Origin: Yuukianura sp. NJ FZ-2021
Lineage: Eukaryota
Assembly (NCBI GenBank): GCA_046563655.1
Contig: CM102287.1
Location: 6,138,001 to 6,202,000 of the forward strand
Length of the DNA: 64,000 nt
Direction of reading: 5' to 3'
Shown here: positions 10,327 to 61,203 of the stretch, one piece after another
Numbering within the stretch: the stretch's first letter is position 1
How the letters are laid out: every line of letters begins with the position of its first letter
The notes under the pieces: generated by a model
Seen by the model: only the letters and a program-made list of their open reading frames with translations
Database searches by the model: none
Told to the model about the DNA's origin: nothing
Translations under genes and position numbers: made by a program

Positions 10327-10402
10327 GGTAGCACGCCATTGCTCCGAATGAATTGCTCCGAAACGCTTCTGAGCAATTCATTTGGAGAAATGGCATGGAA
10401 CC
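10327..10402. mobile_element. 76-bp mini-MITE with the same termini and a 9-bp TSD
   Basis: GGTAGCACGCCATTG..AATGGCATGGAACC, flanked by ATAACTAAT on both sides. Confidence 0.75.
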
Positions 10403-17770: not shown

Positions 17771-21107
<3,337 letters not shown>

Positions 21108-31226: not shown

Positions 31227-33071
31227 TCAAGGGCCCTCGCCTATAAACACTCCGTGGGAGCTCAGCGGCAGAGAGGCGTTGAACGTTGCCCTTGCAATTT
31301 CTTGCATATTTTTAGCATCCAGAAACAGCAAGTAGTCACCCGAGTTGGCTTCCCCCTTACTAACAGTTGCAATCAAAATACCGTCATCTTCCGCATTTCC
31401 GTCCGGATTTGCCACAAACAGTCCCTCACTGATCACAACTCCTTCTGCCTCATTGTACTTCAAAACCTCTCCAGTAGTTGTGTCCACTTTGACAATGGAG
31501 TTGACATGTGGTCCCACGGTATCAAAAAATGAAGTACCGTAAAAGTACTTATAGGGTTTACCCAAGTATCGGTGATTTATAGTTGGAAATTCAATACCCG
31601 GTAATGTCAAATTTTCTGGGCGAAGGACAATAACTTTGCCATCTCGTACAGCACTTCCACAATGTTTCAAGTTTTCATTCAAATTGACTCCTTCTGTGAC
31701 CCCAGTCAGCGATTCCAAAAGCGGAATGACAAATCTCTGAGGTTGTGGCAAAGAATTTTGTACTTGATTTCCTGCGCGTAGGTCAGCAACCATGTTGGAT
31801 AGGATGATGTCGTTATTTGGATATGTTAAAATATCAACAACGAGGTGGCTGGTGACATCATCAGTTTTCAATTCCCAACAATTGATAAAGTGGAAGTAGA
31901 AAAATTGAGATTCAGCCCGAATTTCGACTGAAGAAAAAGGTTTTCCGGTGGATTTGGAAACAATGAAAAATCGATTTTTGAATTTCTTGTCCCACTTGTT
32001 CAAATCTGCAATGGAATTCCCTGCTCGGAATGCTGCAGCAATAATTTTTGGTACTGAAGCTTGATACGGTTGTTCCAAAATAACGATAAAGTTTTGACTC
32101 ATGCCAAAACTATGAATGTAGCTAAATTTTGATAGAGATGAAGATGGAATGCCTCCAAAAACTTCGGATTCTTTGAGTGCTTCGCCCAGCTCACCGACTG
32201 TTGGATCAATTTTGAGCATGTGATACTTGAGTCCAGTGTACATAGATGGACCAATGTTGTAGACAATCCCAGTTTCAGGGTCTGTCAAAGGATGGGCACT
32301 CGTGCATCCTAAGCCGAAAACGGCGTTGCTATCATATCGTTCAGCTATCGACAGCGTACAGGAGTTGACGTGTTGAAAGTTGCAAGTTTCAGCGCATGTG
32401 AATACGTTCTTGCCGATTTTGAAAATCGAGGCTACAAATATTTTTGAACAAAAGGTTAAACAAAATATTGAAAAACAAAATTATATGCCGGGTCGGGTTC
32501 TTTAAAAGGAACTCATATTTAGAATACCCGGTAAATTTTGAACGGAGATTTTTTAACTTACTATTTCCATTGTCGCTAAACACTGGTATTACCTAAATAA
32601 AAACAAAACTGTTAGGCTTATTATGCTATACTTTAGGGTTTAGTATTTGCTATTATTTCCATAGTATGTGTTCTACGAAAATTTAATATATTAATATATA
32701 TTACAAAATTTGTAGATGCTTACATCTGGAAGATGTCTAACAAGGATGCTCTTTTCCGGATCGGCGTAAGACCTTGTACAGAACTCGATATAGCACGGTT
32801 TTCCAGATCCAACGGCTTTTCGATGTGCTTCGGAATCCAGAAATTTTTTAGTCAAACTCACCAATTTTCCTCCACGAATTTCCAGTCGCGTCAAAATTGT
32901 GTAGCCATCATAAAAATTGTTCACAGTGAAATTGGACGGTAAATCAAATTTTCCTGGTCCATTTCGAATGATGACCCCATTTGTATAAGAAGGCAGCACT
33001 TGACCCACCACTTCTACGGTTTCAGCGTCAACCAGTTCCTCTGCATTTTCAAACAACTTGTTTCCTCCCAT
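31227..33071 (-). CDS. Carotenoid oxygenase (BCO/RPE65/NinaB family), 3 exons
   Basis: RNGPGKF, EFCT..PE, SDNGN, EFPTIN and SEGLFV motifs; four Fe-binding His (TSAHP, YIHSF, YFHFIN, LSSHG); small exon at 32562-32592. Confidence 0.9.
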
Positions 33072-33928: not shown

Positions 33929-36212
33929 ATGGTGTCTGGTTTTGACGTTTTGCTTTTGGTCTTATTTTCCATCTTCTTCGTGGCAACGCTAAAGGAAGAG
34001 AAGAAACGAAGAAGAAGTTCAGTAACGTCGAATTATGCGGCAGAAAGAAGACGGTCATCAGCATTGTCAAATTCGGCGGTAGGAAATATTGAATCACTTA
34101 AAGAATTTCACGGTAAGCAGAAAACCGCAAATAATACTAAAACAAAATTCGCAAACGGAAATATATTAGCGTCTTAGTTCAAGTTATTTTCATTGCAACA
34201 CAAAAATGTTCGAATTCTCAAAACTGAATTCAGCATTTAAAAAAAAATTAATAATTCAAAAATTGCTACAGAATATTCAAAAGTTAAAAAAATTTTAAGG
34301 TCCACGTGCTTTACCGATTATTGGTCATGCGCTTCAGTGGATCTGGATCGGCACTACGCGAAACTTATACGACACGATTCATGAATTTTGTAGACGCTAC
34401 GGATCTGTTTGTGGTCTCTGGGTTGGAAATCAATATTTTGGTAAGGTTTTGAAAATGAAAAAATTTTTTGATACTTATTCAAAGAAAAATTTCGGTTTAA
34501 ACAGTTTTTATTGAGGATCCGGTAATTGGAAGGGAAATTTTGAATCAAGAAGACCTTCATCGTAAATTCCCAGCAACATCAATAACATATGAATTGTATG
34601 GACATTACAATTTAGGTAATTAAACCGAAAGTTTAAAAAAATTGTTCTACAAAATGAAGAAATGATAAAATGTGGATGAATATTTTACAGGAATTAGCCA
34701 GGCACATGGTGACGTCTTAAAGGAGATGCGTCGATTTGCAAGTCGCGGGCTAAAACGCTTTGGGTTTGGCAAATTCGCATCCATGGACGATATTGTTCGG
34801 CATGAACTAACGAAATTTTTAAAAGCATTTGAAACTTCGCGTCAAAATGGCAATGGGGTAGTTTCTATGGATGAAGCATTTTATGTACCTACACTAAACG
34901 TTCTTTGGAAACTGATGACTGGTGAAGCCTTTACTCCACATGACAGTCGTCTCATAAATCTCATCGGCTTGGCGCGGAAAGTTTTGAAAACGGATCCGCC
35001 TGGCGGCTCGCTTCCATTTGCCTTCACATTTTTGACGTACATACCTGGCTTAACGATTTTTCAAGACGCCAAAAAATTTTGGTTCGAAATACGGGCACTC
35101 CTTGGAGAAATTGTTGTCCAACGGAGAGCTAATGGCCACTTCGTAAAGGACCCGGAGTGCTTCATAGATTTATTTCTCCATGAAATTGAAGCTGGTGAAG
35201 ACCCGATGTATACAGGTAAAAATGTTTACAAATAATTTAGTCTAATGTATTATTCTATTTATTTGATTGATTGATTATTGTATTTATATATTTTATACAA
35301 TATTTTCAGATGCTCAAGCCATTCAAACATGTATGGATTTGTTTCTCGCTGGATTGGACTCGACTGCGAATACTCTGGATTGGATGATAATTTACCTCGT
35401 TTCTTATCCAACAGTATATGCCAAAGTTGTGGCAGAAATTGAAGAGGTCATAGGTTACGAGCAGCTTCCCACAGTGCAACACAAGGCGAGGTAACCTACC
35501 TGCAGTTGTGAAAAATCTTAGATTTTGGTTTCATGCGTTAGGTTTTCAAAAAATTTGTAGTTTTTACAATTATGAAGTTTAAAAAAAAATTCTGCAGAAT
35601 GCCGTACACGGAGAGCGTCATGCTTGAAGTGATGCGAATTGCCAATGTGATTACCTATACGATGAGGGCGCCACTTTATGAAACTACGTTTCAGGATTAC
35701 AAAATTCCAGAAGTGAGTATTAATTTACGAAATTTTTTCAAAAATTAAAAGAAGCTCTAAAGAATTTTCTGTCGTTTGTTTTGTAATAGGATACGCACAT
35801 CTTAGTGAAGCTGGATTGTTTTCATAAAAGTAAAGAAATTTGGGGTGATCCAGAAATTTTTCGGCCTGAAAGATTCTTGGATTCAAAAATGAATATTATC
35901 AACGCTGATAAAATTTTCACATTTGGATTTGGTAAAAACGTGTTTCTCAAAAGCTTCGTTTTCGTTTACTAAAGTAATTTTCCATCTCCTTTGACTTTCT
36001 TCTTTTCATTTTCAGGAAAGCGAGCTTGCATTGGTGAAATTTCATCAAAATTGAGCATCTTCCTCTTCCTCACAACGTTTTTACAAAATTACTTTTTGGA
36101 AGTTTCGCCTCATCATCCCGCCCCGTCTCTCCTGCCTGAACGTGGAATATTGATTTCTCATCCAACTGCATACTATGTCAAGGCCACTCCAAATCCCAAA
36201 AATAACAATTGA
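33929..36212 (+). CDS. Cytochrome P450 (CYP2-clan-like), multi-exon
   Basis: N-terminal anchor; GPRALPIIG; I-helix DLFLAGLDST; EVMR; FRPERF; heme motif FGFGKRACIG formed across an intron. Confidence 0.9.
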
Positions 36213-40067: not shown

Positions 40068-41408
40068 ATGCTGTCCGATTCTGCTTTAAAGTATGTCCGT
40101 TTGCTCAACATTTTGTACTATTTTTGTTTATCCAATCGCTACTTTGAATTTGATTCCAAAAAACACCGTGTAATTGTGCACCACGATCCGAGAAATTTCA
40201 GACACGAATTCGCTCCAATTCTACTCTCGTACTACAATGCAATACAACTATTATTGTTGGTAATAACAGCTCTGTACGACTGGTATTTTTATAAAGATCT
40301 GGAACTGTACACTCGAATTTACGCCCTGGCCGTGTCCTTGATAATACTTTGCGCTACCTCTGCTCAGTTCATCCTCATTTGCAGAAACGAAGCACTCAAT
40401 GACCTTACAAAACTCTTCGACTTTGATCAACAAATAAGTGAGAAAGTTACATTTTTATTCTAATTTGTTATAAGAGATTCTTATTAAGATAATTTTTACT
40501 GTTTAATAACGCAGATAAAGTCGTGGAAACGGCGGAAAGGCTTCCGTCGTCTTTCAGAACCGTGACAGCATTTATTATTTTCGCCGCTATATTTTCTCCG
40601 CCCACGTTTTTGTACGCCGTTGTCAACAAGATACATGCCGCTGCAGTTGCGAAAACATTAATAGAAGGGATTTTTGGACGGTTCGCCTGGATTGGTCTAA
40701 TTTTGAGTTCAGTTGCATTTTGTGCATGCGTTGTTGTGAGTAACACTACAGTTGCAACTGTACTTCTCGCGAACGAACTTCTGACTCTTGTTATGGGTTT
40801 CTTCAAAATGGCAAGGTATTATAACAGCTCATGTTAACATGCTCTAAGCTAATCTCTGTCAGTTATTGTAGCAGGGTAAATTAAGTCAAACATTCGATAC
40901 TTAAATTGCTTGATTAAATTGTAGGAAACACATCGAATGTACGGCGGTTCTCGAGCAAGCGGCATGGAGGCGGCGATTTACTATTTTGTTCAGGGCATCA
41001 TTTCTTTGGACAAACTTTTACACCTATGAATTCTCAGAGTTGCTGTCACTAGTAATGGTCCCAGTACTTGCCATGACTACACTGGTGTTATTTTGCATCA
41101 TTCGATTTCATTCCGAGTGTGGGCTGGTTCCATCTGTTGGCCTCTTGGTAATAATCTTCGCAACATTATGGCACATGAGAGACATATTTGACACGGTAAA
41201 CAAAGTCAAAATTTATGAGTCGAAGCTTCTACGTACTATACAAAGGGAGCCTGGCTTTACCCCAATCGAGAAGAGGTCCATTTTTGCTTGTCCCATTCGA
41301 CCTATTCCACTTGGATCATTCAACAAAATAACGCCAGCAACATTCTTCTACATTGTAAGCGATGTCATCGTTGGCAGAGCCATTGACTTAGTCTTGCTTA
41401 CCAGATAA
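40068..41408 (+). CDS. Divergent chemoreceptor-like 7TM protein (3 exons)
   Basis: Hydrophobic exons; C-terminal CPIRPIPLGSFNKITPATFFYIVSDVIV; paralog of the next gene. Confidence 0.72.
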
Positions 41409-42555
41409 AACTGTTGTAGATAATGAGAAAGTTCTTGTGCAACACATACGCTAATAGCGTAACGCTAGACTCCTAATATCTAATTGTTCACATATTCTTT
41501 AACATTTATGTGCTTACTGCTTATATCCACGACAACACTTACAATATTCTACCGAAGTTTAGTAGTCAAGCCACAATCCTAACCGTAGACGATTTTCATG
41601 TAACCCGTAGTTCGAAGTCAACGGTTTGGTAAAATTTTGTTGAACGAAAGGAAATTTCTAATAATCGTGCAACATCTGCAATAGCAATTGGAATTTGTAA
41701 ATCTGTATACAATGTGTTGTGGTTAGCCTGTTTCACCTTAAACATTCTTAGAATGTTAAAAATAACCTTTCAATAAACGAGTTTAAGCTTTACCGGTGTT
41801 ATACGCAATATATTTATAACTTCTCAAAATTCATCGCTAGTTACTTAAGAATGCCGTCATTTCAAAGATTTCACAAACAAATTATTTAGTCAACTAAGAT
41901 TCTATAACCGCCAAGCGTTTTGTTTGTTTGCGAAATTTTTTTTTCTAAGAAGAAAACCATTTTTTACGTTTAGGTCCACGTTTCGTATCATTTTCTTTTT
42001 TGACAAACCTTCTGATCCGAGTAGCTTAAATTTCGAATTAGTTTACCATGTAACTATTCCAAGTGCTATATGCTCAGCAAAAAGACATGAAAGTGGTAAA
42101 AAAAAATGTTAGAAACAGTTATCAAGTTAACTGCCGACGGCATCAGACTATAATATGTTTCTTTTTTGTCGTTGAACGATTTTTTTTGTGTTTCTCTATT
42201 TCTTCGGAAATTAAATTAACCAAGTTATTACCAGCGTAAATAACAAATAAAAACCTTAATGGTCTGAACCATGCCAAATTTGTCAAAAACATCGTGGTCC
42301 GCTTTGCCAAAAACTGAAAAATATGCATTTTTAAAGAATGGATCATTTCAATTACTTGAATTGCAAAAAAAAAAAAAAAAACACTTTCAAATGTAATTAC
42401 AAAAGCTAAAGTAATTTCAAAAAAATACAAATAGGTTAATCTTTCTTAATTACTCTTTCACGTCAAGTGCCAGCCACAATAAAACAGAAAATTATGTTGC
42501 TGTTTGTATTAGTCGTCAATTTCTCTGAACATTAGTTGAACCTCACTTTACCAAC

Positions 42556-43909
42556 ATGTTTTCTGCAAGTTCCCTGAAATACGTCAGAATCCTGAACTGT
42601 TTGTACTTTTTTTACTTGTCTAACATTTATTTTAAATTTGATAAAAGCAAACAAAGACTAATTGTTATTCATAATCCGAACAATATTCGAGAGGAATTGG
42701 CTCCAATTTTCACTTTTCTTTTCCGTCTCAGCCACATTTACTTTATCATTTTTGTGATTCCGTATGAATGGCTCGTTCAAGGCCAATTCGAAACGTACAA
42801 GACAATTTGCACATTGGTATTAGCCATGACCGTCATCTGCTGTATTTTTGCGCACACGATTTACATGAAGAAAACTAAGGAAATCACGGTTGGGTCAATT
42901 GCGATCTTCAAATTCGATAGCCAATTGAGTAATTATTCCCGAAAAAATTTTTTCAAAATTATTTCTTTCTAACAAGAAGTTGTGAACCAATTTTGTTGCT
43001 TTTTTGTTAGATAAAGTTGTTGCATCATCAGACGAATTAACTTCGCACTTCAAGGCCATAAGTGTGCTCATGATTATTGCAACAACAATTACTCCTTTGG
43101 CATATATTTCTTGTTTAGAACAAGGGTACCATTTGGCTCTCATGTTTGATCTTCTTTTTAAGAATTTAGTAGGAGAATTTTACAACATACGTCAACTTCT
43201 CGGCGGAATTCTAGTAGCTGGTATTGTCTTGTTGGACGTGGCCTTTGTTTCACTTGTTTTACTTTTGGCCGAACTTTTGGAAATGATAAGTACATTCTTT
43301 CAAATGGCAAGGTACGTAATGCGCCGAAATAGTTTGGTTCAAAACATCAAGTACCATATAACTTTAAATCTTGATTGTTTTATTTGTTCGAAAGGCCATA
43401 TAAACTTGTTTTTGATACCTTTGTATTTCAGCAAACGCATTAGAGGCGGAAATGTTCCGATGATTTGGAAGAAACGATTTGCGGTTTTGTTTCAATCTTC
43501 ATTTGTTTGTACCAATATCTATATTCATGAATTTTCAAATCCCCTTTCAATTGCAATGGTTCCACTACTTGCTATGGTCACTTTCAATCTCTTCTGTCTA
43601 ATTCGCTTCCACAGTGATTGCGGAATCAGAATTAGTTGCGCTCTATTGGCAATTTTTATTGGAACACTTTGGAATCTCAAATCAATTTTCGATTTGGTCA
43701 ACAAACTCAAAATCAATGAAAGAAAGCTACTCAGAGCAATTCAAGTTGGATCACTTTTTACAACTGATGAAAAACGAAGTATTTGCGCATGTCCCACACG
43801 ACCAATTCCTTTGGGGTCTTTTAACAAAATTACACCAGCAATGTTCTTCTATGTTGTAAGTGATGTCATTGTTGCCAGAGCTATTGACCTTGTTTTGTTA
43901 TTTAAGTAG
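42556..43909 (+). CDS. Divergent chemoreceptor-like 7TM protein, tandem paralog (3 exons)
   Basis: Same exon structure as the previous gene; LKYVR.LN and CPTRPIPLGSFNKITPAMFFYVVSDVIV. Confidence 0.72.
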
Positions 43910-47598: not shown

Positions 47599-50500
47599 TC
47601 ACGGAAACAATTTTTGTGTTTCCGGCGATTCATCAGTACCCTGCGCCTCGGCAACTTCTGCCGTCAAAGGCGACGGAACTGGAGAACTCGTGAAGGAAAT
47701 CAACTTGCTATCCGGTTCCCGCTTAAACAAATTCAGGGACTCTGGGGACGGATTTCCATTTGATGACTTTCGGGGTTTCGTGGTTCCAAAATGTCCATTT
47801 TTCATAACAGTTGCCCTAGGGGTCAAAAACATGACAGAAGTGTTCAAAATACTTTGGCGTGACTGACGACGCATGGAATTTGCAGAACGTCTAATATGGA
47901 ATTTTCGGTACTCCCTCCGGAGAGCTTCTCTGACATCATTAGAAAAGAAACAATAGAGGAGACTCACGAGAACTCCCTAGTGAAGATGAGAAACAAAAAG
48001 TTAATTAAAAGGTCTCACGTAACATTTCCAACATTAGAATTCATGTTCCTTGACTATCATGGAATAAACTTTTTAGAATTCTAGAAATTCAACTTTTGTG
48101 GGTCTCAAAAGTGAAAGTTGCGGAGAGTAATTGTAATTTCGCTAATCTTACCTGAGAAGAAAGGAAAACCGTGTTTGCCACCATGTACACATTTTCAAAA
48201 CTTCCACCAGGGTTGTACACAAAGAGAAGATTGTTAATCCCAAGGAGTGGAAACAAAATCCCGGTGGCTTTCACAGCTCGTCTGCAAATGAGACAAGAAG
48301 AAAGTAAAAAATTGCGCCAGTAGAGGACTTGTTACCGGGAAAATAAAACAATGAGCGAACTGTAGAGATGCTGGAATTGTGCTTATGGTGTAACTGTGTT
48401 TCACTTTTTATTACGATTTTCCTATGTTTTCCAAGTTGGACTGGATGCTTTTTGAAATGGTTACCTAAATTGTGCTGCATCACTCGATGTATTTGCTCTC
48501 TGGATTTTCGTCAGAAGAATTCGCATGATGTTTATCAAGAACAGCAAATTTACCTGTTTTGGCATCAAAAACAGAAATTAGTTTCTTCCTACATGCAGCC
48601 CCCCATGTTTACCACTGCTTTGTTTTTGAAAAGTAATTCATTGAGGCAATATAGTTCTTTACTTTAAATATTTACCATTCTTATTGGTAAATTATACTCA
48701 ACCTTCCTTAGGTAGGTGAAAGTTTTGCAATTTAATGTTAGCCTTAATCAATATAAAAGCTTTTTGATTTTGCTTAAAATTCAGTAGACGGTAAAATCCT
48801 GTAAATTTTGGTTTGCTAATGAAATAGTCGTTTTTCTGATGTCAAAAAGCAGTGCTAATTTTAAATTCGTTTAATCAGCCTTGATTCTTGATTTATCAAA
48901 GATTCTTATTTTGGGCATTATTTTCTCAAGCGTGATTTAAGCGTGATATCAACAAAGCAGAGTTAAGTTAGTGTTTTCAATTAAACTGTGAGTTGAGTCA
49001 ATATTTGTAATTTGTTAAATTCAAATTCCACAGGATTTGACGTCATACCGTCATCGAATTGCGTACAAAATTATACGTGTTTTTGTTTACATTTGAAATA
49101 GTCAAAAACGTACAAAAAGGGCAAGAATCATAGGTCCAACAAGAATCCAAATATACTGATGACGAGAGAAGCTCTGCCAGCAATGATTTGAAAGATGAGT
49201 TTCCATTGTTGCCGCCCATGCTAATATTAGGATGAGAGGTAAAACTGAAATTTCAAAAATACTTTTGAAGTAAATACTTTTAAAGATAATTTTTTTTTGC
49301 AGAAGAAATTGGAAGTATTTCATACCCCATCCAATACAGAAGTATATTTTGAAGGGAGCTCCCTTGTCAAAAATGTTTGTCGTAAGACGTCCATGGAGAT
49401 AATGACCTTGAATAAACATCCAATTGATGCTGGCTACAGTAGCGTACATCAATAGACTCATGACGATTTTGCAAATCCAATCCTAGTGAAATGATGATAA
49501 ATCACATTTTGAGGAAAACTAACGCTTAAGATATAAACAGCATCTACTTACCACTGTGCGGTAATGGGTGCTGCGTTGAAAAATATATGGTTCTGTTATG
49601 ATGATGAGAAGAACAAAGCGAAGTGCCAGTGAAAGCATTAGTTGAACATGGACCGTAACACGTTCACACTTTAAGCTCCTAAAATAGAACAAGGATATTC
49701 GAATAATCATAATTTTTCAAAATTTCACTCACGTTTTCAAAGATTCCACGTGCTTAAGTTTAACTAATTTAAAGTTAGGTCCACGTGTAATATTAAAATT
49801 CAACTTTTCCATTTGTTTTCATACATTTCAGACAATCCTTCCCTCGAACCATTAAGTACGACTTTGATGAAAAGTTTCCGCATGTCGTACGATGTAATAT
49901 ACTAAAACCCTTTGATGGCCATTCCTTTGAAGAAGTCTAAATCCTTAAAGGAGACAGCAGACGTATTACCCGTTAACCAAAGATGTCTCAATGGAAACCA
50001 CAACGTTAACGGACAAGGGATGCAATAATCTTCTTCCGTAATACACTATTGGAGGAAAAGGAAATGTTAGTAGAGAGGTAGTGAATTCCAATTTCTATTT
50101 AAGCCCATAGTACCAACCAATACATTATTGATTCCATCACACAAGCAACGTCAAAATGAGTCAAAGAGAAAGTCCTAAGTTTGTCCAAGACTTTCATCTT
50201 CGGCACAAAATCTTAAATTTAAAATGACATAGACGTCTTTTCACGCAAAAGTTTTGCAGGGAATTTTCTCGGTTGTAATGTCATACAGTTCCACCAAACA
50301 TTTCAGGTTTCGAAAGTATCAAAATCAAAGAAAAAAACACTATTAAATATATTAATGCTGATCAATACGGACCCAACAGGAAGGACTTTCCAGACAAACT
50401 TTTTTGACTGTCGTCAGTCACGTTTAGTTTAAGCTAATTTCTAAAGAATAACTTGCTTTAACAAAATCAGCTAAAAAAGTCTATGAACCATATCCGCCTA

Positions 50501-53500
50501 AGGTCCAGAAACTTCGTCCAGCAAGGGAGAATACACTGGACCAACAGTATCACAAATGAGAGCAACTTTTAGTTTTAGGTTTCAAAAAAGTTTGGAAATT
50601 GAATTTAATGTGCTGACATAACAAGTAATTTTGGACGTGCTGTTGGTTCATATGATTTCACACTCATTAGTATTAGCGAGGCTTCAAATAGATTCAAAGC
50701 AAAATGTATTTGGTCAGCCTTAACTTTCAATTTCACCAGGCACCAGCCACGAGCCATGAGGTGACGTGTAGCCAGTGAAAGTGCTTAAAGGCAAAGTGGT
50801 TGGCTGGCTGAATTTAAGTGTTAAGTGGATTGAGAAAGCAAGAGAGCAGAAAAGTGGATGCATTATTACACCAAACACATTACATTGCTCCACTCACCAA
50901 CAGTGTTAATGCAATTTAAATCCAAATCTGGGTCATTCTGCATCAATCAAGGTTCCTGCAAAGCTTTGTGCTTTCGCAGCGTAAACATGGTAAAATTGAA
51001 AGTAAAATATTGCGTAATACGTTCATAATTGCGGAACACAAAATTTCCGCTTCATTGCCGCTAAGTTCCTAGAAAATAGTACAAAGTGCATGTGGAGTAG
51101 ACTTTCGTGGTTACATTCTGGATGTACACGCACTATTACAAACGAAATGCTAAACCGCAAAATAAAGTTAGCGAGCATAGCGAACTATGGTGTTCCTCAT
51201 GTTTAAGTGCCAAAAACACAATTTTAATTAAAACTGAAGTATAATTAATTTGCAATTAACTGGAAAATATGCTAAAACCATCAAATTTATGGTCGAGTAC
51301 AAATTGGGAAAGTTTTCACGAAGTAAACAAAAAAAGTGCATAGTAAAAAGAAACAAAAAAAAACTAGTCGGAAAATGCAAATTAGACTTGGAGTACGAAA
51401 GTAAAGTCACAGTAGAATAAATTAAATGTAATGATTTTGAATTCAAAATATGAACTCTTGTCAACACTTTTGAATAAAATCTGGAGAAAACTTATTAGTT
51501 GAAAACTTTCTCTTGAAGCATAAAAGAAATGCAGGTTTGTTTACTGTGTATTGCGTTAATTTCTTTGAGGGTTTCAGACTTGTTTACTCGCGTTTCAGGA
51601 CAAAAATTGCATTTGTTTCTGTTTAGTTTTTCAGAAAAGAATAACAAGACGCGAGTGTAAAACGAAAAACTATTTTGCGACTTAAACTTTTCCTGTGTTT
51701 ATTCCATTCACCAAAGGAAAACTTTGGAATTAGAAATTCAATTTGCTGAAATTGAAATGTCTTCATGCTCAAAGTACCTATACAAGACGGATTTTAAAGT
51801 ACGCATGAAGGAAAGTGTTGTTGATGATACATGATAACCTCAGAGTTTTCAAACAATTTTTTGAAACTCAACAAAACTAGGGCTTTAAATTTTTTGGGGG
51901 TATTTGGAAAAGTTGGGAAAGCATTCAACAAAAGTATGGATTTTTATTTCTTTTCGTCAAATCTCTGTATTTTTTCTCAACTTTTAGAGTTTTCAATTGA
52001 GAGTTATTTCTGAAATGCTTGGTTTTGGAAATCTTATCTCTTCAACTAATTTGGAGTGAGAAGTTTTAACTGATTTAGAAAAGTTTGCAGTTTTGGTTTC
52101 GCTTGTCTTACTTGAAGTAATGGAAGATGAAGAGCGACGTTGCAAGTGATATGAAGGACATGATAGAGCCCAAGAATAAAATCCAACGAACAGCATCCAC
52201 TACAGCATCATTTGTCATGTTTGTCTGAAAAGTAAAAAGAAAATGTTTTAACTCATGTGAACATGGAAAAATTGTTTCCTTCAAACAGGCGAAATATTAA
52301 GTATTAAATATTTTTAATCAAAAACCGCAAAATATTTTCTTAATTAACATTAAGGGCAGGAGAATTTCCCATTGGGAAATCAATAAATATTTAGTAGAAA
52401 AAAAAAACCAAAATATTGTATATCCGTGTTTGAGACAACTGGTTGTTGATTCCATTTTACAGGTGACCAATTGGCTCGTTGATGCCATTCAAATTGACAG
52501 GGGTGTTTCGAAAGTTCACTTTTGACCTCATTTGACCTTTCAACAAGGCCAGAATGAAAGGTTCAAGGGGATTGTTATATAACTAAAAGCATGCTACTCA
52601 ACCCCCGAAGCTTGTTCTAAGAAAAAACATCTTTTTAATGTTTTGCAGTGGGGTGTAAAAATGGATTTTGAAAAGATGATTTCCTAATGCAAAATTATTC
52701 AAAATGGAGCTACTACCAAAAGAATTAGCCCCGCTAGTTAAAAAAAAAGCTTAGCTTTAGCTTTTGAAAATTTGCTCGAAAGTTTTGAATAGAAGTTTTT
52801 TTAACAAAACCAAACAGGCAAACCAGGATGCAAAAAGTTTTTGGAAATATCCTTCAATGTCTTAGTTTTGAACATTTTGAAACCTTAGGGAATGCTTTTG
52901 TAAGCTTGATGAGAATACCACGGAACCTCACAGTGTTGAAGCTCGTGCTGCTCGTTTCCACTGCTCATAGTCAGTCCCAGTCGCAAGGGACTCGATTCAA
53001 AAAAAAATGTTAAGAAAAAAATTCCGGAAATTTGAAAATGCCTTTCGAAATGTCCTGAAAACCATGAAAAACTGGAATGATCCTGTTCGTTCAGAGCAGA
53101 GAAAAATTATCACGGAAAAACTATTAATTTCTATCCTCACGGATGCCGTTGTTTCCGGAACCGGTAATTATGATGATTCTTAATGAGTAGAACGACTTAC
53201 TACTAAATTGAAATAATTTCAATTGCATTAAAATATAACAAAAAAGCTATATCTGAAGGATTTCTCCTTATTTTAAAAATCCAAACGCTTGTATCTATTC
53301 TGACCAGGAAAAGAGTCGTTTTAAAGTTCATGGAAAAAGTCGAGCAAATTAGTTTTTCGAGTAGTAGAGTAGATGAACTTTTGTTTGTCTTGATGGAGAT
53401 TGATTACCTTAAGGTTTAGCTTGGAATAGAACAAGGTTGCATCTCAATGCAAAATTTTGTATAACAATGGATTATTTTGGAAGAGTGACAAAGAATTAAA

Positions 53501-56500
53501 AGAACATATCCTAGAAGGTCACAGTTTTCAAAATCCTGGCTTCAGTCCAAAGTTGTTTCGAGAATTCTATATACTGAAAATTATGAAATTCGCGGCAGAG
53601 TATCCCTTCAGTATTTGGAGAAGCATGCCAGTCTCAGATTTAGGAAATATATTGTGAGACTGCAAAAATAGCGTCATATTGTTAAGAAAGAGAAGCGAGC
53701 GCCCTCTATTGGTACTGTAGGGACAACTCTTCCACTTCTCATCTTTTCCCATTCCAAGTCAAAAGCCAGGAAAAAACACAAACTCAACCACAACTAAATA
53801 ATCGAATTTTAACTGAAGTTAGGGACTCCGAATCATCTCAAACTTAGTACTAATCAACTCCCAGAAGAAAGTTGATTAGTACTAAGCATAATTAGATCAG
53901 CTGCTATTCTCCTCTATTGTTTTAAATTGCAAGATGAGTGCATGGATGAGGCTGCCTTTTCAATGGGAGAAGGCAGTAAAGGCTCCTCTTCCATACACTC
54001 GGGACCCAGTCATGCTGTCGGATCAAGTAGACGTCACAGGTACGGTAGACGTGGTGAGATAACTCGCCTGCTACCACAGGTGGTTCGAATCTCTCTCGGT
54101 TTTCCGGAGATTCTCGGTAGGGTTCGGCAGTTTCGTTTCATACCGTTTCGTTTACCGTTTGATTCAGTTTCGTTTACCGTTTCGTTTCGTTTAAAGTTTC
54201 ATCTACGTGGTTTTCAATTAGTTTTCTCATTTGGTTTTTCTCATGGGCTTTTCACATTAACTTAACGAGTTGAGCGCGGCGCGGTTTTCTCTTTTTGTTG
54301 TTTGGAATTGAACTCACAACATCTCAGTCTCATGTCACGGGGTTGGTGACCCCTAAAATTGCTGTGTACCGCGGCATGTGATTTATTGGTAGTTAGTACT
54401 GGTTGGTTCGGTTCGAGTCGGAGTTGGTTCGGTGCGGCACTGGGGTGCGGGATTCTGTGATTTTCGGGCTGGAGTACTCGAGATCGACAACAGGCTGGAG
54501 TAGCTGATCAACTGAGGCCAATTTCTTTCTATTACTACCAGAGGTAAAAAGGGGGTCAAGTCGTGACCTTGAGTGACCGGTCGGCCCTTGGAAGGGAAGA
54601 AACCCCCTTTCAAGGTGAAACTGCTAAGGGCCCGGGAAAAACGTAAGGATAGGAACGGAAAGGGTTGGGTTTACAAATTAGAGCGGAAGAGAAGTCCCTT
54701 AATTTAACCACTACGTAAAATTCCTTATCTTACAACATGGGGGCTCAGACGGGAAACCCTTAGGCGGTAGACCGGTCAAGACAAGAGATGTCAGAGTTCA
54801 AATCCAAACAATGATTTGTCCACTACGCGCGTAAATTCAAAGTTAAGGTCAAAGGTTAAAGTCAAAGTTAAAATCAAAAAATGGAAAGGAGGTCGCGCAG
54901 AGGTAGAGCGCAGGGAAACGGTTGTGCTGAGGCAGTGACCCGGACAAGAAAGATGGCTGAAAAAGTACCGCAAGTGGATCGGAAGATTCTGAAATGGAGA
55001 GATTGCCCTCTGCCGAAGTTTGATGGAAGCTACTGCGTACAACCGTACGAGTATTTGCTGAAACTGGAACGGTACATGCAGGTTTGGGGAATCTGTGAAG
55101 AGGACATGATGGAGCAAGTCTTGCCAGTAGCATTCTCAGGAATGGCAGCAATTTGGTACCAATTCATCTACAAGATCCTGGACAGTTGGAGTACGTTTCG
55201 TTCCGAATTCCGGCGCAAGTTTGAACCGCTAGGCTACCAACGTGAGCTGAAGAGAGCACTGATGGATCGCTACCAAGGCAGGGAAGAAAAGTTGACCGAT
55301 TACGTGCTGACGATGTGCTCACTATTCGCCAAACTGGAAGTTGCAACTAGTGAAGAACAGAAGGTCATGCAGGTCATTGAACTGATGAACCCAGAATCGA
55401 GAGACAGACTCAGGTGGATTGGCCAAAGCTTTGCAGACACACGGGAGCTGTACAAAGCAGCCGAAGAAGTCGAAAGAAGAATCGCTCTGGACAACATGTA
55501 CCACGAGCCAACAACAGACAATGTCATTGACCCCGGGCTCTCCTACCATGGGAGTGATCATTCCACAGACGCTGATTCTGGATGGATTGACAGGCGTGGA
55601 CGGAAGTCTCGAGGTCAGAGGGAGAGGTCAAGTTTTGGTGGGGCTTCTCAAAGGTTTTCAAGGCAGTGGGGGAATGGTATTGACCCAAGGGAGCTGTCAG
55701 TTCCTGTGGACTCGTACGTTGACGATTCGTCTTCGGTATCGTTTGCTCCAATGTCTTCGGAAATTCAGAGTGGGATCTACAAGGGAATCACGAGTGAGCG
55801 CCCTACTGTAGGAAATGATTGGAAGGGCGGTGATGAGCCTCGTACTCATGCGCAGACCCAGGAGTCTGGCACGACGGTGATTTCCGCTTCCAACTCTTCG
55901 ACGCTTGATACTGAAATGGACATGGAGGAAGAATCTTTGGAAGATTCGGGGTTTGAATACTGTGGACTGATTGATGCCTTTGAGAATTGCACAAGCCTCT
56001 CATCGAGCCAAGACGAAGTTACTTCGGAAACTCTGATTCAAGAGACGGAAGTTTCATGTTTCCTGTTGGATTCTCCAGAAGAAAGCCATTGTCAGTATGA
56101 AACTGCGGCATTGGGCAACAACACTTCTGAAGCTTGGGAAGAGATTACTGGGACTTTTGGCTGTAATTCTGAAGAATGCATCGCCACAGAGATTGACCAT
56201 TGGGAAGACTGGGCAGAAGCGACTGTTGGCAGTACCGAGGCTATCACAGATTCTGAAGTAGCTGTCTTGTCACTGTCCAGTACTGAACCGTGTCGCGAGA
56301 AAGTAGTGGACAAAAGCACGCAACAGCAGCGCTTAAAATTAAACAAATTAAATGACTACCAAGATTATGACTCTAATGCTCGTCTTTTCTCTGAGTTCCA
56401 GAAAACTCAGTTGGACATGGACAGATGGAAGCGAGTAAACCTGGATTTGACTACGACGGAGGCACGTTATCTCCACGACGGATTCGTGCAGAGGAAAAGA

Positions 56501-59500
56501 GATGGGACTTGGCCTTTCCGAGGAAAGATGGCACAGGATGAGGATTTGAAATGGAAAGATGGCCGCCAGAAACGGAAACTGTTGTCTGGGCGAGTGACCG
56601 CGGAAGGAGAAGACCCTGGAGGCTTCTGCCTGTAAATTTTCATATGGATTGGACCTTGGATTACCTACTACTGGATTCCCTCCCTTGTAAATTTTTCGAA
56701 TTTCGTCCTAAAAATGAATTTTTGTCCCCATAGTAAATTAACAAATTAATTTTTCTTTTGATTTTTGGAAATGTTAAGCTCAAGTTAAATCTAGAATTTA
56801 AGGTTTCTTGTAAATACTGTAAAATGGAATGGAAAGTTGGGTAAGAGAGAGAAAAACTGAATAAGAAGTGTACTGACCGCTTCGTGGCTTTGTGAGGGGG
56901 GATGTTGTGAGACTGCAAAAATAGCGTCATATTGTTAAGAAAGAGAAGCGAGCGCCCTCTATTGGTACTGTAGGGACAACTCTTCCACTTCTCATCTTTT
57001 CCCATTCCAAGTCAAAAGCCAGGAAAAAACACAAACTCAACCATAACTAATTAATCAATTTAACTGAAATTAGGGACTCCGAATCAAAACAAACTTAGTA
57101 CTAATCAACTCCTAAGAGAAAGTTGATTAGTACTAAGCACAATTAGATCAGCTGCTATTCTCCTCTATTGTTTTAAATTGCAAGATGAGTGCATGGATGA
57201 GGCTGCCTTTTCAATGGGAGAAGGCAGTAAAGGCTCCTCTTCCATACACTGGGGACCCAGTCATGCTGTTGGATCAAGTAGACGACACAGGTACGGTAGA
57301 CGTGGTGAGATAACTCGCCTGCTACCACAGGTGGTTCGAATCTCTCTCGGTTTTCCGGAGATTCTCGGTAGGGTTCGACAGTTTCGTTTCATACCGTTTC
57401 GTTTACCGTTTGATTCAGTTTCGTTTACCGTTTCGTTTACCGTTTCGTTTCGTTTAAAGTTTCATCTACGTGGTTTTCAATTAGTTTTCTCATTTGGTTT
57501 TTCTCATTGGTTTTCACATTAACTTAACGAGTTGAGCGCGGTAAGGCGGCGCGGCGCGGTTTTCTCTTTTGGTTGTTTGGTTTGAACTCACAACATCTCA
57601 GTCTCATGTCACGGGGTTGGTGACCCCTAAAATTGCTGTGTACCGCGGCATTTGAGTTATTGGTAGTTAGTACTGGTTGGTTCGGTTCGAGTCGGAGTTG
57701 GTTCGGTGCGGCACTGGGGTGCGGGATTCTGGATTTTCGGGCTGGAGTACTCGAGATCGACAACAGGCTGGAGTAGCTGATCAACTGAGGCCAATTTCTT
57801 TCTATTACTACCAGAGGTAAAAAGGGGGTCAAGTCGTGACCTTCAGTGACCGGTCGGCCCTTGGAAGGGAAGAAACCCCCTTTCAAGGTGAAACTGCTAA
57901 GGGCCCGGGAAAAACGTAAGGATAGGAACGGAAAAGGCTGGGTTTACAAATTAGAGCGGAAGAGAAGTCCCTTAATTTAACCACTACGTAAAATTCCTTA
58001 TCTTACAATATAATATGTTTAGAGCAATTGACGCGCAAACTTGGCTAAATAAAGTTACCTCAGTAATGTTTAAGTAGATGTCATTTCCCTTGTCATCACT
58101 AAAGTGTTGTCTTTATTGGATGCCTTTACCACCAGCGTATGTCTATATCAACCGAGTGGTTGTGGTATGTGGCTACAAAATTTTAAATCCCTAACAACGT
58201 AAGAGAGTAACCAAACCAACCTTGGTGCTTACAGCGGTATTACATGGCAGACGTAACTTATGCCTTTACAGTGCCGCTGATTTTGTGTGTAATCTAGGAT
58301 AATTGAAATCAAAAATACCGGGAAAAGCTAACCTAAACAAATCTGTGTTTTGTGTACATCTGTGACTCTAAAATGGTGGCAACCTTGATGCTTTCCCTGA
58401 CTTTATTCACATCTTTCCTATCCAAATTGTAATTGATATTCAAGATCTCTTTTGTTGAGTTGTTCTTGAGGGCTATAGATAGAATTTTACTTACGGGAGC
58501 AGTTGTTTGTTCCAAGCTATCCAAACACTCGTTGTAGTTTGTCCAGTTTCCCCACAGCCAAGTCCCATCTTCGCCACAGATTCGAATTGCGTTTCCTAAA
58601 ATTTGACAGAAAGATTCACTTTCACCATGTTCACTCATTCTCTGCTATGATAGACAGGTTTTCATCACATCCCCCGTACTGCCTTGTAGATGCAAGATTT
58701 CAAATGAACCCGAGTTAATTTAGTGGAAATTTCAAAGTTGAACGGAATCCTCTGAACAAATATCAAGAGAAATCAACAAAGGACGCAAATAATCATCAAA
58801 AACAATAGGCAAACAAAAGCGTAAGCAAAAGATGAAATTGTTTTTCACTCCACAAAATTGCAAAACAACCAAACCAACCAAATACATCTATGTCGTCGTC
58901 GTTCCAGAATTGGTTACTCGATTCTATCGTTACATGTCTGTGATGGCGGCATCAGAATATGTCAAACCACCAAAAATTCAAAATTTTTGTTAATATTTGG
59001 AAACTTGCTCTCTGCTGCCAATTCTTTGCAGATCTTTCCCCCATACGATAGGAGGGAAAATCAAGATTCACCTAGTTCTTCGATTATTCCTGTGTAACAA
59101 TGCTTCTCATTCATATCATTCGCCTGCTCCTTTACGAGAAAAAAGTGTCATCTTCAAAGGATAAATTCAGAAGATCATTCATATCATAAGATGATCAATA
59201 AATCAAATCAAATCATAATTTCCCAGACTCAAATTACAAATAATACTCTTTATAAATTACTCGAGGAAACGCTCCCTCCGTTATCAAAATAAATGTAATA
59301 TTGTTTCCTACTTAACTGCACGGCCTCTCTTACATTGTTCGAAAAGCGTACTCAATTACTGTTAATTTTTGTTAAAGAAAGAAATTCGAACAGTCAAAAA
59401 TAAGTCAAAGCTAGGATTAAACTTTTAAGTAACTCGGTAGGATAATGAAGCTTCGTAACTTCAATGAATGAATATGAATGAATAGGTGAAGTGATGTTAT

Positions 59501-61203
59501 TTATGGGGAAAGGTGAAAGTGAAAGCAATTATGAGTACAGCATCATTAGAGAGACCAATGAGGAGCCGGATTTACTACAAACGAAACTAATCATACCAAA
59601 ACCAAATCGTCAAAGCGGATAAAGTGACCCATATTTTACACAATTTGCGAAACTGCGTTTGAGACTTTTGAAAGCTCTTAAGTTTAACTATAAGTATATT
59701 TAAAAAAAGTGTAATGTCATAAAACTGAAAATACAGGTTGGCAAATGCTGAGAATTTCTAGTTGAAATTGGTGGGAATTTTTAACCTAGTGTAAATTGGC
59801 AGAAATTTTTAATTGCTACCTGTAATTAATGCAATTTGATCCGGTTCCATGTCCGAGTAGTCCTGCATGACCTCACTGCATGGTCGCGTCAATGTCGTAC
59901 CAGCAGCAGCGAATGGCCAACAATACACAGAGTCCCAAGTGGCATTGCAGTATCTATTTGGGAAACCTAAAAAAAAGTGTTAAGAAAATATATCGTCGAG
60001 TGCAATTAGTTCCATTTCCATTACTATTTTAATTCATGGTATTTGTATTTTTATCTCATCGCGTATTTCAATTTCAAAATAAAAATTCTGTCGTGCAATC
60101 GTATGAAAACGCAAATCAAATGAAAATTTTACAAAGTATAAAACAAATTGTCCTTTTAACTTTCCACTCTTTAGAATGTCACTTTTTTTTTCAAAATACA
60201 GGAATTTCTGCCTTTCTTTCTTTTTCTTTTTTTAATTTGCGACAAGGCGGAAGTTGCGGGGGCAAAGAGTGACGGTTGAGGTTAGTGGTTTGTCTTGTCA
60301 CTTGAATCAAGAATTCTTCCTTGGCTGGAATTTCTTTGAGAAATGTGACGAATGACATGAATTTACCAAGGAGAAAGTATGGAGACAAGGAGCAATGGAA
60401 GCGAATGATTTAATTTTCCGAATTTGATCCTTCACGACGAAATTTAGTTGGCATGCTGTTTCGAACCGTATTTATTTTCGACATTCGCACTTCGAAATAA
60501 GGTATTCCAATTGTGAATGTAAACTGAATTTAGCCCGTCCGCTTCCTTATTTCTAAAAAAAACTTCCTGTTCCTATTTTTTTTTTCATTTTCCTATTCCT
60601 TTCATTCAAAAAAACCATTATAAATTTGAATGACAAACGCGAATGGGTAATTCCGAACCATATTTGTTTTCATCATTTGCACTTCGAAGAACATTCTGTA
60701 GGTATTCCAATTCAAAATATAAATTGAATTTAGCTAACCCATGCATCCTGATTTGTAAATAATGAACTTCCTGTCCCAAGTCCCAAATTTTGTTTACGTT
60801 TCCTTATTCCTTTCATTCAAAAGAATCCTTATAAATTTGAAATTTAGGAAACTTAAAACACATTTCTTGGAATCATACTGCTGGGTCTTATGGTTTGTCA
60901 AATAAGAAAGCAAGGGGAAATAAAAATGCCAAAAGTTGTGATTTATGTTCTTCAGTTCTGCAATTTTAGTAATTACTGCGCATTAAGCAAAGAAGGACAC
61001 CCAAAAATGTCTTCTTTCCAAATTAAAAAAAAAATCTCAGTTTTGTGTTTTTAGTTTTTCAAAATCTTACCAGTATTATTTTCTCTTTCCATTTGGAATT
61101 CATCCCAGCTTTTCTGGATACATTGATCGCTTTCATCACTGGAACCGTCTTGCTCACTTTCACTTACTGCGACATCCCTTTCGGTACGTAAAAAACGACT
61201 CAT
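47599..61203 (-). CDS. Class B1 (secretin family) peptide-hormone GPCR, PDF/CRF/calcitonin receptor-like; 5' end uncertain
   Basis: Ectodomain exons CIQKSW (about 61070-61203), YCNATWDSVYCWP (about 59825-59965) and RICGEDGTWLWGNWTNYNEC (about 58495-58595). TM1 exon at about 52112-52224, followed by SLKCERVTVHVQL, WMFIQGHYLH, IGWG, LFPLLGI and SLLYCFFSNDVR. Confidence 0.88.
53653..54734 (+). repeat. 5' LTR (1082 bp)
   Basis: TGTGAGACTGC...CCTTATCTTACA, repeated at 56906. Confidence 0.92.
54738..54755 (+). other. Primer binding site, tRNA-Pro-like
   Basis: TGGGGGCTCAGACGGGA lies 3 nt after the 5' LTR; the first 9 nt match the canonical tRNA-Pro PBS TGGGGGCTC. Confidence 0.75.
54881..56635 (+). 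CDS. Gag/Arc-like capsid protein with a long acidic C-terminal extension (584 aa)
   Basis: The capsid pattern LPKFDGS..PYEYLLKLERY..A.IWY..W.TFR.EF..RYQG.EE.L.DY is typical of Ty3/gypsy Gag and Arc. No CCHC knuckle, RT, RNase H or integrase motifs were seen. Confidence 0.85.
   Translation: MERRSRRGRAQGNGCAEAVTRTRKMAEKVPQVDRKILKWRDCPLPKFDGSYCVQPYEYLLKLERYMQVWGICEEDMMEQVLPVAFSGMAAIWYQFIYKILDSWSTFRSEFRRKFEPLGYQRELKRALMDRYQGREEKLTDYVLTMCSLFAKLEVATSEEQKVMQVIELMNPESRDRLRWIGQSFADTRELYKAAEEVERRIALDNMYHEPTTDNVIDPGLSYHGSDHSTDADSGWIDRRGRKSRGQRERSSFGGASQRFSRQWGNGIDPRELSVPVDSYVDDSSSVSFAPMSSEIQSGIYKGITSERPTVGNDWKGGDEPRTHAQTQESGTTVISASNSSTLDTEMDMEEESLEDSGFEYCGLIDAFENCTSLSSSQDEVTSETLIQETEVSCFLLDSPEESHCQYETAALGNNTSEAWEEITGTFGCNSEECIATEIDHWEDWAEATVGSTEAITDSEVAVLSLSSTEPCREKVVDKSTQQQRLKLNKLNDYQDYDSNARLFSEFQKTQLDMDRWKRVNLDLTTTEARYLHDGFVQRKRDGTWPFRGKMAQDEDLKWKDGRQKRKLLSGRVTAEGEDPGGFCL
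56894..56905 (+). other. Polypurine tract
   Basis: GAGGGGGGATGT immediately before the 3' LTR. Confidence 0.7.
56906..58007 (+). repeat. 3' LTR (1102 bp)
   Basis: Direct repeat of the 5' LTR with scattered substitutions and small indels. Confidence 0.92.
60460..60841. repeat. Degenerate tandem duplication (units of about 170-190 bp) in a GPCR intron
   Basis: The blocks GCACTTCGAA, GGTATTCCAATT, TGAATTTAGC, ACTTCCTGT and TATTCCTTTCATTCAAAA..TATAAATTTGAA each occur twice in the same order. Confidence 0.65.

Follow-up and report, generated by a model that had tools for sequence, protein, structure and literature searches.

A gag-only, Ty3/gypsy-derived LTR element with an orphan protein tail in a GPCR gene intron of an animal-like genome

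Results

The element and its insertion site

The stretch of DNA analyzed (the window, 64 kb) carries a secretin-family (class B) GPCR gene on its reverse strand, and an LTR element lies antisense within an intron of that gene, between the HRM and the 7tm_2 exons (Table 1). The host genome is animal-like. The element is 4,355 bp long, with 2,184 bp in its LTRs and ∼2.17 kb in its interior; no Rfam family was matched at E ≤ 1 over positions 53000-58700. A neighboring ORF gave a sub-threshold match to 7tm_7, which was the sole hint on the host phylum.

Table 1. Features of the element and of the surrounding gene (positions in the window)
Feature	Positions	Strand	Description	Evidence
GPCR gene	48089..59976	-	Secretin family (class B)	
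HRM exons	59809-59976, 58333-58641	-	Part of GPCR gene	
7tm_2 exons	49519-49713, 49102-49479, 48089-48328	-	Part of GPCR gene	
5' TSD copy	53649..53652	+	ATAT	Letters read; empty-site joint
5' LTR	53653..54734	+	1082 bp, TG...CA	LTR alignment
Palindrome	near 53843-53886		44-46 nt, in 5' LTR	
Tandem repeats	54130-54257		GTTTC-type, 12/22 nt, in 5' LTR	
PBS-like site	54738..54753	+	TGGGGGCTCAGACGGG, 3 nt past 5' LTR, TGG at start	
5' UTR repeat	54832..54878	+	Tandem 12-mer, ∼3.8 copies, immediately 5' of start codon	
Gag ORF with orphan tail	54881..56635	+	Single ORF, 584 aa + stop, start context AAAAAATGG	
Residues 1-35	54881..54985	+	Arg-rich basic N-terminus, net charge +7	
Residues 36-230	54986..55570	+	Predicted two-lobed CA domain, Ty3/gypsy type	Pfam, phmmer, AlphaFold, Foldseek, VIA, PDB sequence matches
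Residues 238-262	55592..55666	+	Basic Arg/Gly/Ser patch, candidate nucleic-acid-binding stretch	
Residues 301-480	55781..56320	+	Acidic, Ser/Thr/Glu-rich, 7 Cys, net charge -34	
Residues 481-584	56321..56632	+	Mixed-charge C-terminus, net +4, RKR and KRK clusters, low-confidence helices only	
3' untranslated interior	56636..56893	+	AT-rich, 33% GC	
PPT	56894..56902	+	GAGGGGGGA, 9-nt purine run ending 3 nt 5' of 3' LTR	
3' LTR	56906..58007	+	1102 bp	
3' TSD copy	58008..58011	+	ATAT	Letters read; empty-site joint

The two LTRs were 95.2% identical over 1107 aligned columns and both started with TGTGAGA and ended with CTTACA. Because they differ by 23 mismatches and 6 gap openings, the copy is not young, and it may itself be inactive. 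Among contigs assembled from public sequencing runs (X1 to X4), one X1 contig joined position 53648 directly to 58008, with the 4 letters common to both sides being a single ATAT, and element-free joints (53550 to 58064 or 58072) were present in 4 of 4 runs. This copy is missing from some chromosomes; that is, the insertion is polymorphic. With direct TG...CA LTRs, a TSD, and an empty site, the element has the structure of an LTR retrotransposon, as stated in the initial annotation, which had described it as intact. The same annotation considered all cis signals to be present, and this holds for the LTRs, the TSD, the PBS-like site, and the PPT (short and set 3 nt off the 3' LTR), but not for a TATA box or AATAAA/ATTAAA, which are absent from both LTRs. 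The PBS-like sequence may be of the tRNA-Pro type; ARAGORN detected no tRNA gene in the 64-kb window.

The capsid domain

The ORF matched Pfam Retrotrans_gag (PF03732) with an E value of 7.7e-8, and phmmer retrieved 1138 relatives at E ≤ 1e-3, with identities of up to 35% and a best E value of 2.5e-31. For all 150 relatives among the matches listed, the best-aligned stretch of the query began within its N-terminal capsid part. Retrotrans_gag was found in 27 of the 28 relatives scanned; reverse transcriptase, RNase H, and integrase occurred in Ty3/gypsy order in all 4 scanned relatives longer than 1300 aa, and the domain order RVT_1, RT_RNaseH, rve was seen in the relatives P0020, P0096, P0111, and P0114. 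In a MAFFT alignment, the query kept the majority residue at 19 of the 24 capsid columns conserved at ≥80%. The AlphaFold model had a pLDDT above 94 across residues 41-220, and its VIA comparisons gave Z scores of 12.7 for the PEG10 CA-CTD, 12.1 for the Arc C-lobe, 11 to 12 for dArc1/2, and 9.0 for the Ty3 capsid (6r24), with the PNMA2 capsid also among the structure matches (Foldseek/VIA). Foldseek matched dArc1 (E 4.5e-7), and sequence matches in the PDB included dArc2 (E 6.7e-8) and Arc (E 1.8e-6). A homodimer prediction for the capsid domain returned a score of 0.00 and no answer, which speaks neither for nor against assembly. On the basis of the sequence matches and the predicted model, we are confident that residues 36-230 correspond to a two-lobed capsid of the Ty3/gypsy type, in agreement with the Arc-like, Ty3/gypsy capsid originally proposed.

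The orphan tail

The capsid domain is followed by a tail of 354 aa (residues 231-584), in which the acidic part (residues 301-480) contains 16% Glu, 13% Ser, and 12% Thr. None of the 150 relatives among the matches listed aligned to the tail, and phmmer and blastp comparisons of the tail with these relatives yielded nothing below E 0.14. Atlas searches with the tail and with the C-terminus (residues 470-584) gave no usable match, and, in a tblastn search of the window, the tail matched only itself. When folded alone, the tail had a mean pLDDT of 36.9 with no confident fold, and its composition was that of a disordered region. The tail is nevertheless a real ORF, far longer than expected by chance: its stop-free run of 354 codons compares with a maximum of 251 in 2000 shuffles, and the other five frames across it contain 8 to 25 stops.

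The CX2CX4HX4C zinc knuckle was absent from the query (0 motifs) versus present in 79 of the 150 relatives among the matches listed, and zf-CCHC had no Pfam match at E ≤ 1, in line with the initial annotation. MAFFT placed the zinc-knuckle columns of the relatives on tail residues Cys393, Cys428, Cys433, and Cys471; we rejected this as an alignment artifact because these residues are too widely spaced to form a knuckle. As in Gypsy Gag, where an unstructured region has nucleocapsid (NC) properties, the basic patches could take over an NC-like role. The earlier description of the tail as an Arg/Gly-rich patch, an acidic region, and a basic end was roughly accurate for the first two parts, but the end carries a net charge of only +4.

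Absence of pol

When 5 gag-pol or gag-protease relatives were compared with the element by tblastn, the capsid part alone was matched. Pfam scanning of alternative frames covered the 20 stop-free pieces out of 34 pieces of at least 35 aa (the 14 omitted were mostly shorter) and gave a best E value of only 0.11. There is no protease, reverse transcriptase, or integrase anywhere in the element, which upholds the reported 2.17-kb interior with one 584-aa ORF and without pol; the tail likewise gave no pol trace in any frame. The element is gypsy-derived but is not an autonomous member of the Metaviridae, having gag homology but lacking its own pol with integrase. Searches of word-indexed proteins of near, greater, and smaller length retrieved no match at E ≤ 1e-3. 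Scans of metagenome and viral contigs with the protein, and of metagenomes with the LTR-end/PBS pattern, returned no usable locus. These searches thus yielded neither a close relative nor an autonomous partner.

Repeat family and sequence variation

Contig depths summed for the LTRs, capsid part, tail, and 3' UTR, which do not give a copy number, were 11- to 14-fold those of the flanks in X1, 5- to 14-fold in X2, 3- to 5-fold in X3, and 2- to 3-fold in X4, and the contigs covering all parts of the element came from two differently labeled organisms. In X1, 901 contigs fell into identity classes of 273, 306, 241, and 81, and single ORF or 3' UTR sites had up to 12 to 13 distinct contigs with another letter. 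The depth ratio of the 3' UTR bin equaled that of the ORF in X1, X3, and X4, the LTR depth was no higher than the interior depth, and two diverged X4 contigs spanned 56608-56887, running from the last 28 nt of the ORF into the 3' UTR. Because the contigs were short (130-820 nt, with no complete second copy seen among them), the gag-only structure of the other copies is deduced from the even depth and these two junction contigs. The parts of the element are repeated in many diverged variants, and the gag-only form would therefore be a repeat family and not a one-off deletion; the initial annotation had named a unique internal deletion beforehand as an outcome that would speak against its reading.

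Among 13 listed ORF sites at which most other contigs differ from this copy, 4 changes were synonymous and 9 were non-synonymous; with 22% synonymous expected for random change, this proportion is no different from that under neutral decay of this copy. The 12 best-supported indels among copies were all located in the LTRs and none in the ORF (listed indels only, a depth-biased set), and one listed X4 variant, with 39 nt in place of 6 nt (net +33 nt), kept the frame. If the ORF had decayed as the LTRs did, ∼4 frameshifts and 0.9 stops would be expected, and the joint probability of its being intact would be ∼0.007, a value inflated by the location of the LTR indels in simple repeats.

Discussion

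The results are best explained by the locus holding a member of an LTR family that is derived from Ty3/gypsy, non-autonomous, and present in multiple copies, with a Gag-only interior and with Pol provided in trans, a reading that we consider probable. In the Gag protein, a short N-terminus rich in Arg would precede a capsid domain with the canonical two lobes, and the zinc-knuckle nucleocapsid appears to be replaced by a largely disordered tail in which a basic patch is followed by an acidic region and then by an end of mixed charge. As protease, reverse transcriptase, and integrase are all missing from the element, its copying and its insertion with a 4-bp TSD would be carried out by Pol supplied in trans. 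The donor would be an autonomous element that recognizes the LTR ends, PBS, and PPT of the gag-only element, whose Gag would probably contribute to the shared particles or compete in them. We thus infer, as did the initial annotation, that the element builds its own capsid and borrows Pol.

Loss of pol is the usual origin of non-autonomous forms, as for RLG_Quinta from RLG_Cereba in the available text of PMC11302176, and the locus might accordingly descend, by deletion, from an autonomous gag-pol element with the same gag and tail; most of the repeat signal would then be due to autonomous copies, with the gag-only form being uncommon or confined to this copy. The full-length structure of other copies was not seen in the short contigs. 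We nevertheless regard this explanation as unlikely on the basis of the matching 3' UTR and ORF depth ratios in X1, X3, and X4, the two diverged contigs linking the ORF end to the 3' UTR, the LTR depth not exceeding that of the interior, and the lack of any PR, RT, or IN remnant in any frame. It is also rather improbable that a real capsid is followed by an unconstrained, accidental extension, translated or not, that arose once the original stop codon or NC-pol had been lost. The lack of tail relatives among the 150 listed matches and of a usable Atlas match, the low pLDDT, and the disordered make-up all favor such an origin, whereas the stop-free run is longer than in any of the 2000 shuffles while the other frames are interrupted, the best-supported listed indels, though depth-biased, avoid the ORF, the listed +33-nt variant keeps the frame, and an intact ORF is not expected under LTR-like decay, even if that probability is inflated.

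The nearest solved structures are those of domesticated capsid genes, and the ORF could on that ground be a gag-derived host gene of the Arc, PNMA, or PEG10 type and not a mobile element. This possibility is extremely unlikely, as the ORF is flanked by LTRs, TSD, a PBS-like site, and PPT, an empty site exists, and the sequence occurs in many diverged repeats and, here, antisense in an intron of another gene. Arc, dArc1, dArc2, PEG10, and PNMA2 share with the element the two-lobed CA fold (VIA Z 10-12.7) and sequence similarity, but they are LTR-free host genes at fixed loci, whereas the element is LTR-flanked, repeated, and insertion-polymorphic. The suggestion in the initial annotation of a mobile precursor of Arc-like domestication received no specific support, since any Ty3/gypsy capsid shows such Arc likeness. 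A further, unlikely proposal is that Gag-plus-tail is more than a remnant and acts as a specialized hyper-parasite or Gag-supplier that co-assembles with the partner Gag, with an animal TR-GAG family as a living intermediate between mobile gag and a host-used capsid gene. The long acidic disordered region would then take the place of the zinc-knuckle NC and lie in the capsid lumen with Arg-rich patches on either side, and co-assembly would either capture the Pol and packaging space of the partner or poison its particles, the latter being restriction-factor-like and comparable to the Ty1 p22 Gag fragment named in PDB titles.

Gag-only LTR elements are a well-known type in plants but have seldom been described in animals. 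Their establishment in plants, as TR-GAG and Quinta, means that the novelty of the present element had been overstated. As described in the available text of Chaparro et al. 2015 (PMC4350172), plant TR-GAGs have LTRs, PBS, PPT, and a single Gag-only ORF, with mobility presumed in trans, and are given as <4 kb and from plants; TR-GAG1 has a Copia-like Gag (UBN2) with a zinc finger, and no autonomous partner was found. The present element likewise has LTRs, a PBS-like site, and a PPT around a single Gag-only ORF, but at 4,355 bp it exceeds that size, and it is gypsy-like, lacks the zinc knuckle, and bears the orphan tail in an animal-like genome. In the corresponding text of PMC11302176, RLG_Quinta of wheat and oat is a Ty3/gypsy element of the non-autonomous kind, and its one ORF codes for GAG together with a domain of unknown function; lacking RT/INT, it is thought to supply Gag and borrow the enzymes of its partner RLG_Cereba, with which it shares the PBS, LTR termini, and PPT, and RLG_Sabrina and RLG_WHAM are named alongside this pair. 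Our element is also a non-autonomous Ty3/gypsy element with GAG and an extra region (the two regions being likened by description only), whereas Quinta has a plant host, a centromeric niche, and a known partner. The Gag of Drosophila Gypsy has an unstructured region with retroviral NC properties (Gabus et al. 2006, PMC1635307) and is likewise comparable by description only; Gypsy is autonomous, however, and the abstract of that paper describes nothing comparable to the long acidic region. Animal TRIM/LARD-type elements, as far as covered by the available portions of PMC10886601 and PMC3286476, rely on autonomous LTR elements and retain LTR, PBS, and PPT; they have 4-bp TSDs, but encode no protein, unlike the long intact gag ORF here. 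The TR-GAG papers among the matches listed were all on plants, and no gag-only LTR family of arthropods or other animals was described in the papers covered by our literature searches, although such a family may be recorded elsewhere, for example in Repbase entries or subscription journals. The element is best filed with the known gag-only LTR elements, here in an animal-like genome.

Taken alone, this is an unremarkable case of a transposon inserted in an intron, with a protein tail that lacks an explanation. If confirmed genome-wide, it would document a gag-only LTR family from beyond the plants, and would provide a tractable case for studying RNA packaging by a capsid protein that has a long acidic extension and no zinc knuckle, the effect of gag-only elements, beneficial or detrimental, on their autonomous partners, and how a capsid gene persists after the loss of pol. 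A pol-less capsid gene is the state through which any Arc- or PNMA-type domestication must pass.

Anatomy and insertion of the element

Two LTRs were delimited by direct-repeat search and BLAST, and they align with 95.2% identity over 1107 columns, with 23 mismatches and six gap openings (2, 12, 1, 13, 1, and 1 nt). Both copies start with TGTGAGA and end with CTTACA, and ATAT stands before the 5' LTR and after the 3' LTR. A PBS-like site, TGGGGGCTCAGACGGG, which we presume to be tRNA-Pro-like, begins 3 nt past the 5' LTR, and a purine run, GAGGGGGGA, closes the 2.17-kb interior with a 3-nt gap to the 3' LTR; no tRNA gene was found in the 64-kb window. Since the LTR pair, ATAT, PBS-like site, purine run, and 584-aa ORF were all located, the coordinates and anatomy put forward in the initial annotation are correct. 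Its statement that all cis signals are present is too strong for promoter and polyadenylation, as neither LTR was found to contain a TATA box or either polyadenylation signal (AATAAA or ATTAAA). An imperfect palindrome of 44-46 nt occupies the upstream part of each LTR (53843-53886 and 57094-57137). Each LTR also contains an ATG-started ORF on the + strand that is open in both copies (107 aa, 53942-54265; 109 aa, 57193-57522); neither matched Pfam, and both are probably due to chance.

Features of the element and of neighboring genes (window coordinates)
Feature	Position	Strand	Method
5' LTR	53653-54734	+	direct-repeat search and BLAST
3' LTR	56906-58007	+	direct-repeat search and BLAST
Single long ORF, 584 aa	54881-56635	+	
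HRM exons of GPCR gene	59809-59976, 58333-58641	-	
7tm_2 exons of GPCR gene	49519-49713, 49102-49479, 48089-48328	-	
Copper amine oxidase, one 697-aa open frame	14549-16642	-	
GH1 glycosidase exon	19286-19795	-	
RPE65-type carotenoid oxygenase, 417-aa frame	31227-32480	-	
P450 exon	34669-35235	+	

Logan contigs from four public sequencing runs, of which X1, X2, and X4 represent one sample (organism A) and X3 represents organism B, were aligned to 52500-59200. In one X1 contig, 53648 is joined to 58008, the two sides sharing four letters; this is an empty site with a single ATAT. All four runs also have contigs in which 53550 is followed, after 20-29 other letters, by 58064 or 58072, and these joints represent an element-free, more diverged allele. 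We conclude that the element truly transposed and that its insertion site is polymorphic; an LTR element lacking protease, RT, and integrase was inserted with a 4-bp duplication. Because only those 20-29 letters lie between the joined ends, the diverged allele lacks about 150 nt of the immediate flanks (53551-53652 and 58012-58071) together with the element. Either the insertion may have occurred within an older, small insertion, or a rearrangement may have affected the flanks. In X1, X2, and X4 contigs, ∼22 nt from the start of the LTR are joined to its last ∼18 nt (53653-53676 and 57990-58007) by 30-32 other letters resembling the LTR end region; this joint looks like an LTR-like repeat that has been shortened drastically and has the same termini.

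The element lies antisense within an ∼8.6-kb intron of a minus-strand gene (48089-59976) for a secretin-family (class B) GPCR. For an animal genome, the exons of the copper amine oxidase, GH1, RPE65-type, and P450 genes are of unusual length. Long single-exon ORFs are clustered at 212-5972 (-), 8130-12360 (-), and 40914-43909 (+) and resemble multi-pass membrane proteins; one of these ORFs gave a sub-threshold match to the 7tm_7 chemoreceptor family (E 0.004), and the others matched no Pfam family. The clusters may be lineage-specific chemoreceptor arrays.

A repeated, diverged family

Contig depth was summed for each part of the element and divided by that of the flanks, a ratio that does not represent a copy number.

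Summed contig depth relative to the flanks
Part	X1	X2	X3	X4
5' LTR	13.7	12.0	3.2	2.7
Capsid part	13.1	13.6	4.9	2.1
Tail	11.3	10.9	4.6	2.1
ORF end and 3' UTR bin	11.9	5.1	3.5	2.2

Contig diversity agrees with the depth ratios. Among the 901 X1 contigs, identity was 99% or more for 273, 95-99% for 306, 90-95% for 241, and under 90% for 81, and up to 12-13 different contigs carried another letter at single ORF or 3' UTR sites. Two diverged X4 contigs cover the final 28 nt of the ORF and continue into the 3' UTR; across about 280 nt, 18 and 24 of their letters differ. On the basis of the depth ratios, the contig diversity, and these two contigs, the gag-only interior probably recurs as diverged variants in organism A and occurs in organism B as well, as deduced from short contigs among which there is no complete second copy. 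The element exists in many diverged copies, and a one-off internal deletion of a gag-pol element is unlikely.

A Ty3/gypsy capsid followed by an orphan tail

The ORF protein matched Retrotrans_gag in Pfam (residues 81-166, E 7.7e-8) and gave a sub-threshold match to the Arc capsid. When 1.84 billion representatives were searched exhaustively with phmmer, 1138 matches had E<=1e-3, the top relative having 35% identity and E 2.5e-31; in all 150 matches listed, the best stretch begins in the N-terminal capsid part (essentially residues 35-230), and in none does it fall on residues 231-584, the tail. Retrotrans_gag was detected in 27 of 28 relatives scanned and a zinc-knuckle family in about half, and the four of the 28 that are longer than 1300 aa carry RT, RNase H, and integrase, arranged as in Ty3/gypsy elements. 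Of 24 capsid columns with conservation of 80% or more, 19 have the majority residue in the ORF protein. AlphaFold, using a 100-sequence alignment, modeled residues 41-220 as nine helices (pLDDT >94), for which Foldseek matched dArc1 (E 4.5e-7), dArc2, Arc, PNMA2, and Ty3 capsids; in VIA-align, PEG10 CA-CTD scored Z 12.7, the Arc C-lobe 12.1, dArc1/2 11-12, the Arc N-lobe 10.5, and Ty3 9.0, and PDB sequence matches included dArc2 (E 6.7e-8) and Arc (1.8e-6). The Pfam, phmmer, AlphaFold, and structural matches uphold the description of an Arc-like Ty3/gypsy capsid, and the Arc likeness is what any gypsy capsid would display.

The tail comprises a basic patch of Arg, Gly, and Ser around residues 238-262, an acidic region of Ser, Thr, and Glu at residues 301-480 with seven Cys and a net charge of -34, and a mixed-charge end. 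The CX2CX4HX4C motif, present in 79 of the 150 relatives listed, is absent. This composition broadly agrees with the initial annotation except for its basic end, as the last 104 residues have a net charge of only +4. No relative of the tail was obtained in local phmmer and blastp comparisons with the 150 relatives listed (none with E below 0.14), in three word-indexed protein searches, or as a usable match in two Atlas searches, and no confident fold was predicted in the full AlphaFold model or for the tail alone (mean pLDDT 36.9).

Degraded pol was considered as a source of the tail and rejected: five relatives of gag-pol or gag-protease type, used as tblastn queries, matched the capsid region only. 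A pol remnant in other frames was likewise rejected, the best Pfam match among 20 stop-free pieces being no better than E 0.11, and the absence of pol first proposed is confirmed. Even so, the tail is a maintained reading frame: it runs for 354 codons without a stop, whereas none of 2000 shuffles gave more than 251, and its remaining five frames contain 8-25 stops.

The case for selection on the ORF is only suggestive. Among indels between copies, the 12 with the best support are all LTR indels, and none of these 12 falls within the ORF (a further 199 have less support); one X4 variant with a net gain of 33 nt keeps the frame. Had the ORF gathered indels and substitutions as densely as the LTRs, about 4 frameshifts and 0.9 stops would be expected in it since insertion, with a joint probability of about 0.007 that overstates the case because the LTR indels sit in simple repeats. 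The codon differences count against selection: at the 13 ORF sites listed where most contigs differ from this copy, four differences were synonymous and nine were not (22% synonymous by chance).

Known gag-only elements and a possible route of transposition

TR-GAG elements share the gag-only LTR layout, and their hosts in PMC4350172 are plants, as they are in all the papers listed under that term. Nearer to our element is wheat RLG_Quinta, described in PMC11302176 as a non-autonomous gypsy element, its single ORF coding for GAG and for a domain with no known function, that is mobilized by RLG_Cereba. The animal non-autonomous LTR elements described in PMC10886601 and PMC3286476 are TRIM-like or repeat-bearing and non-coding, whereas the element here encodes a 584-aa Gag-type ORF. 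Our literature searches met no description of a gag-only LTR family in animals, which is weak evidence of absence. The layout is already known from TR-GAG and RLG_Quinta, and the tail is the unexplained part. By analogy with the unstructured NC-like region described for Drosophila Gypsy Gag in PMC1635307, two stretches are candidates for binding nucleic acid, namely the patch at 238-262 and the N-terminus, which is rich in Arg. We infer that Pol would be supplied in trans by an autonomous element recognizing the LTR ends, PBS, and PPT, and that the Gag of the element would enter the same particles as that partner.
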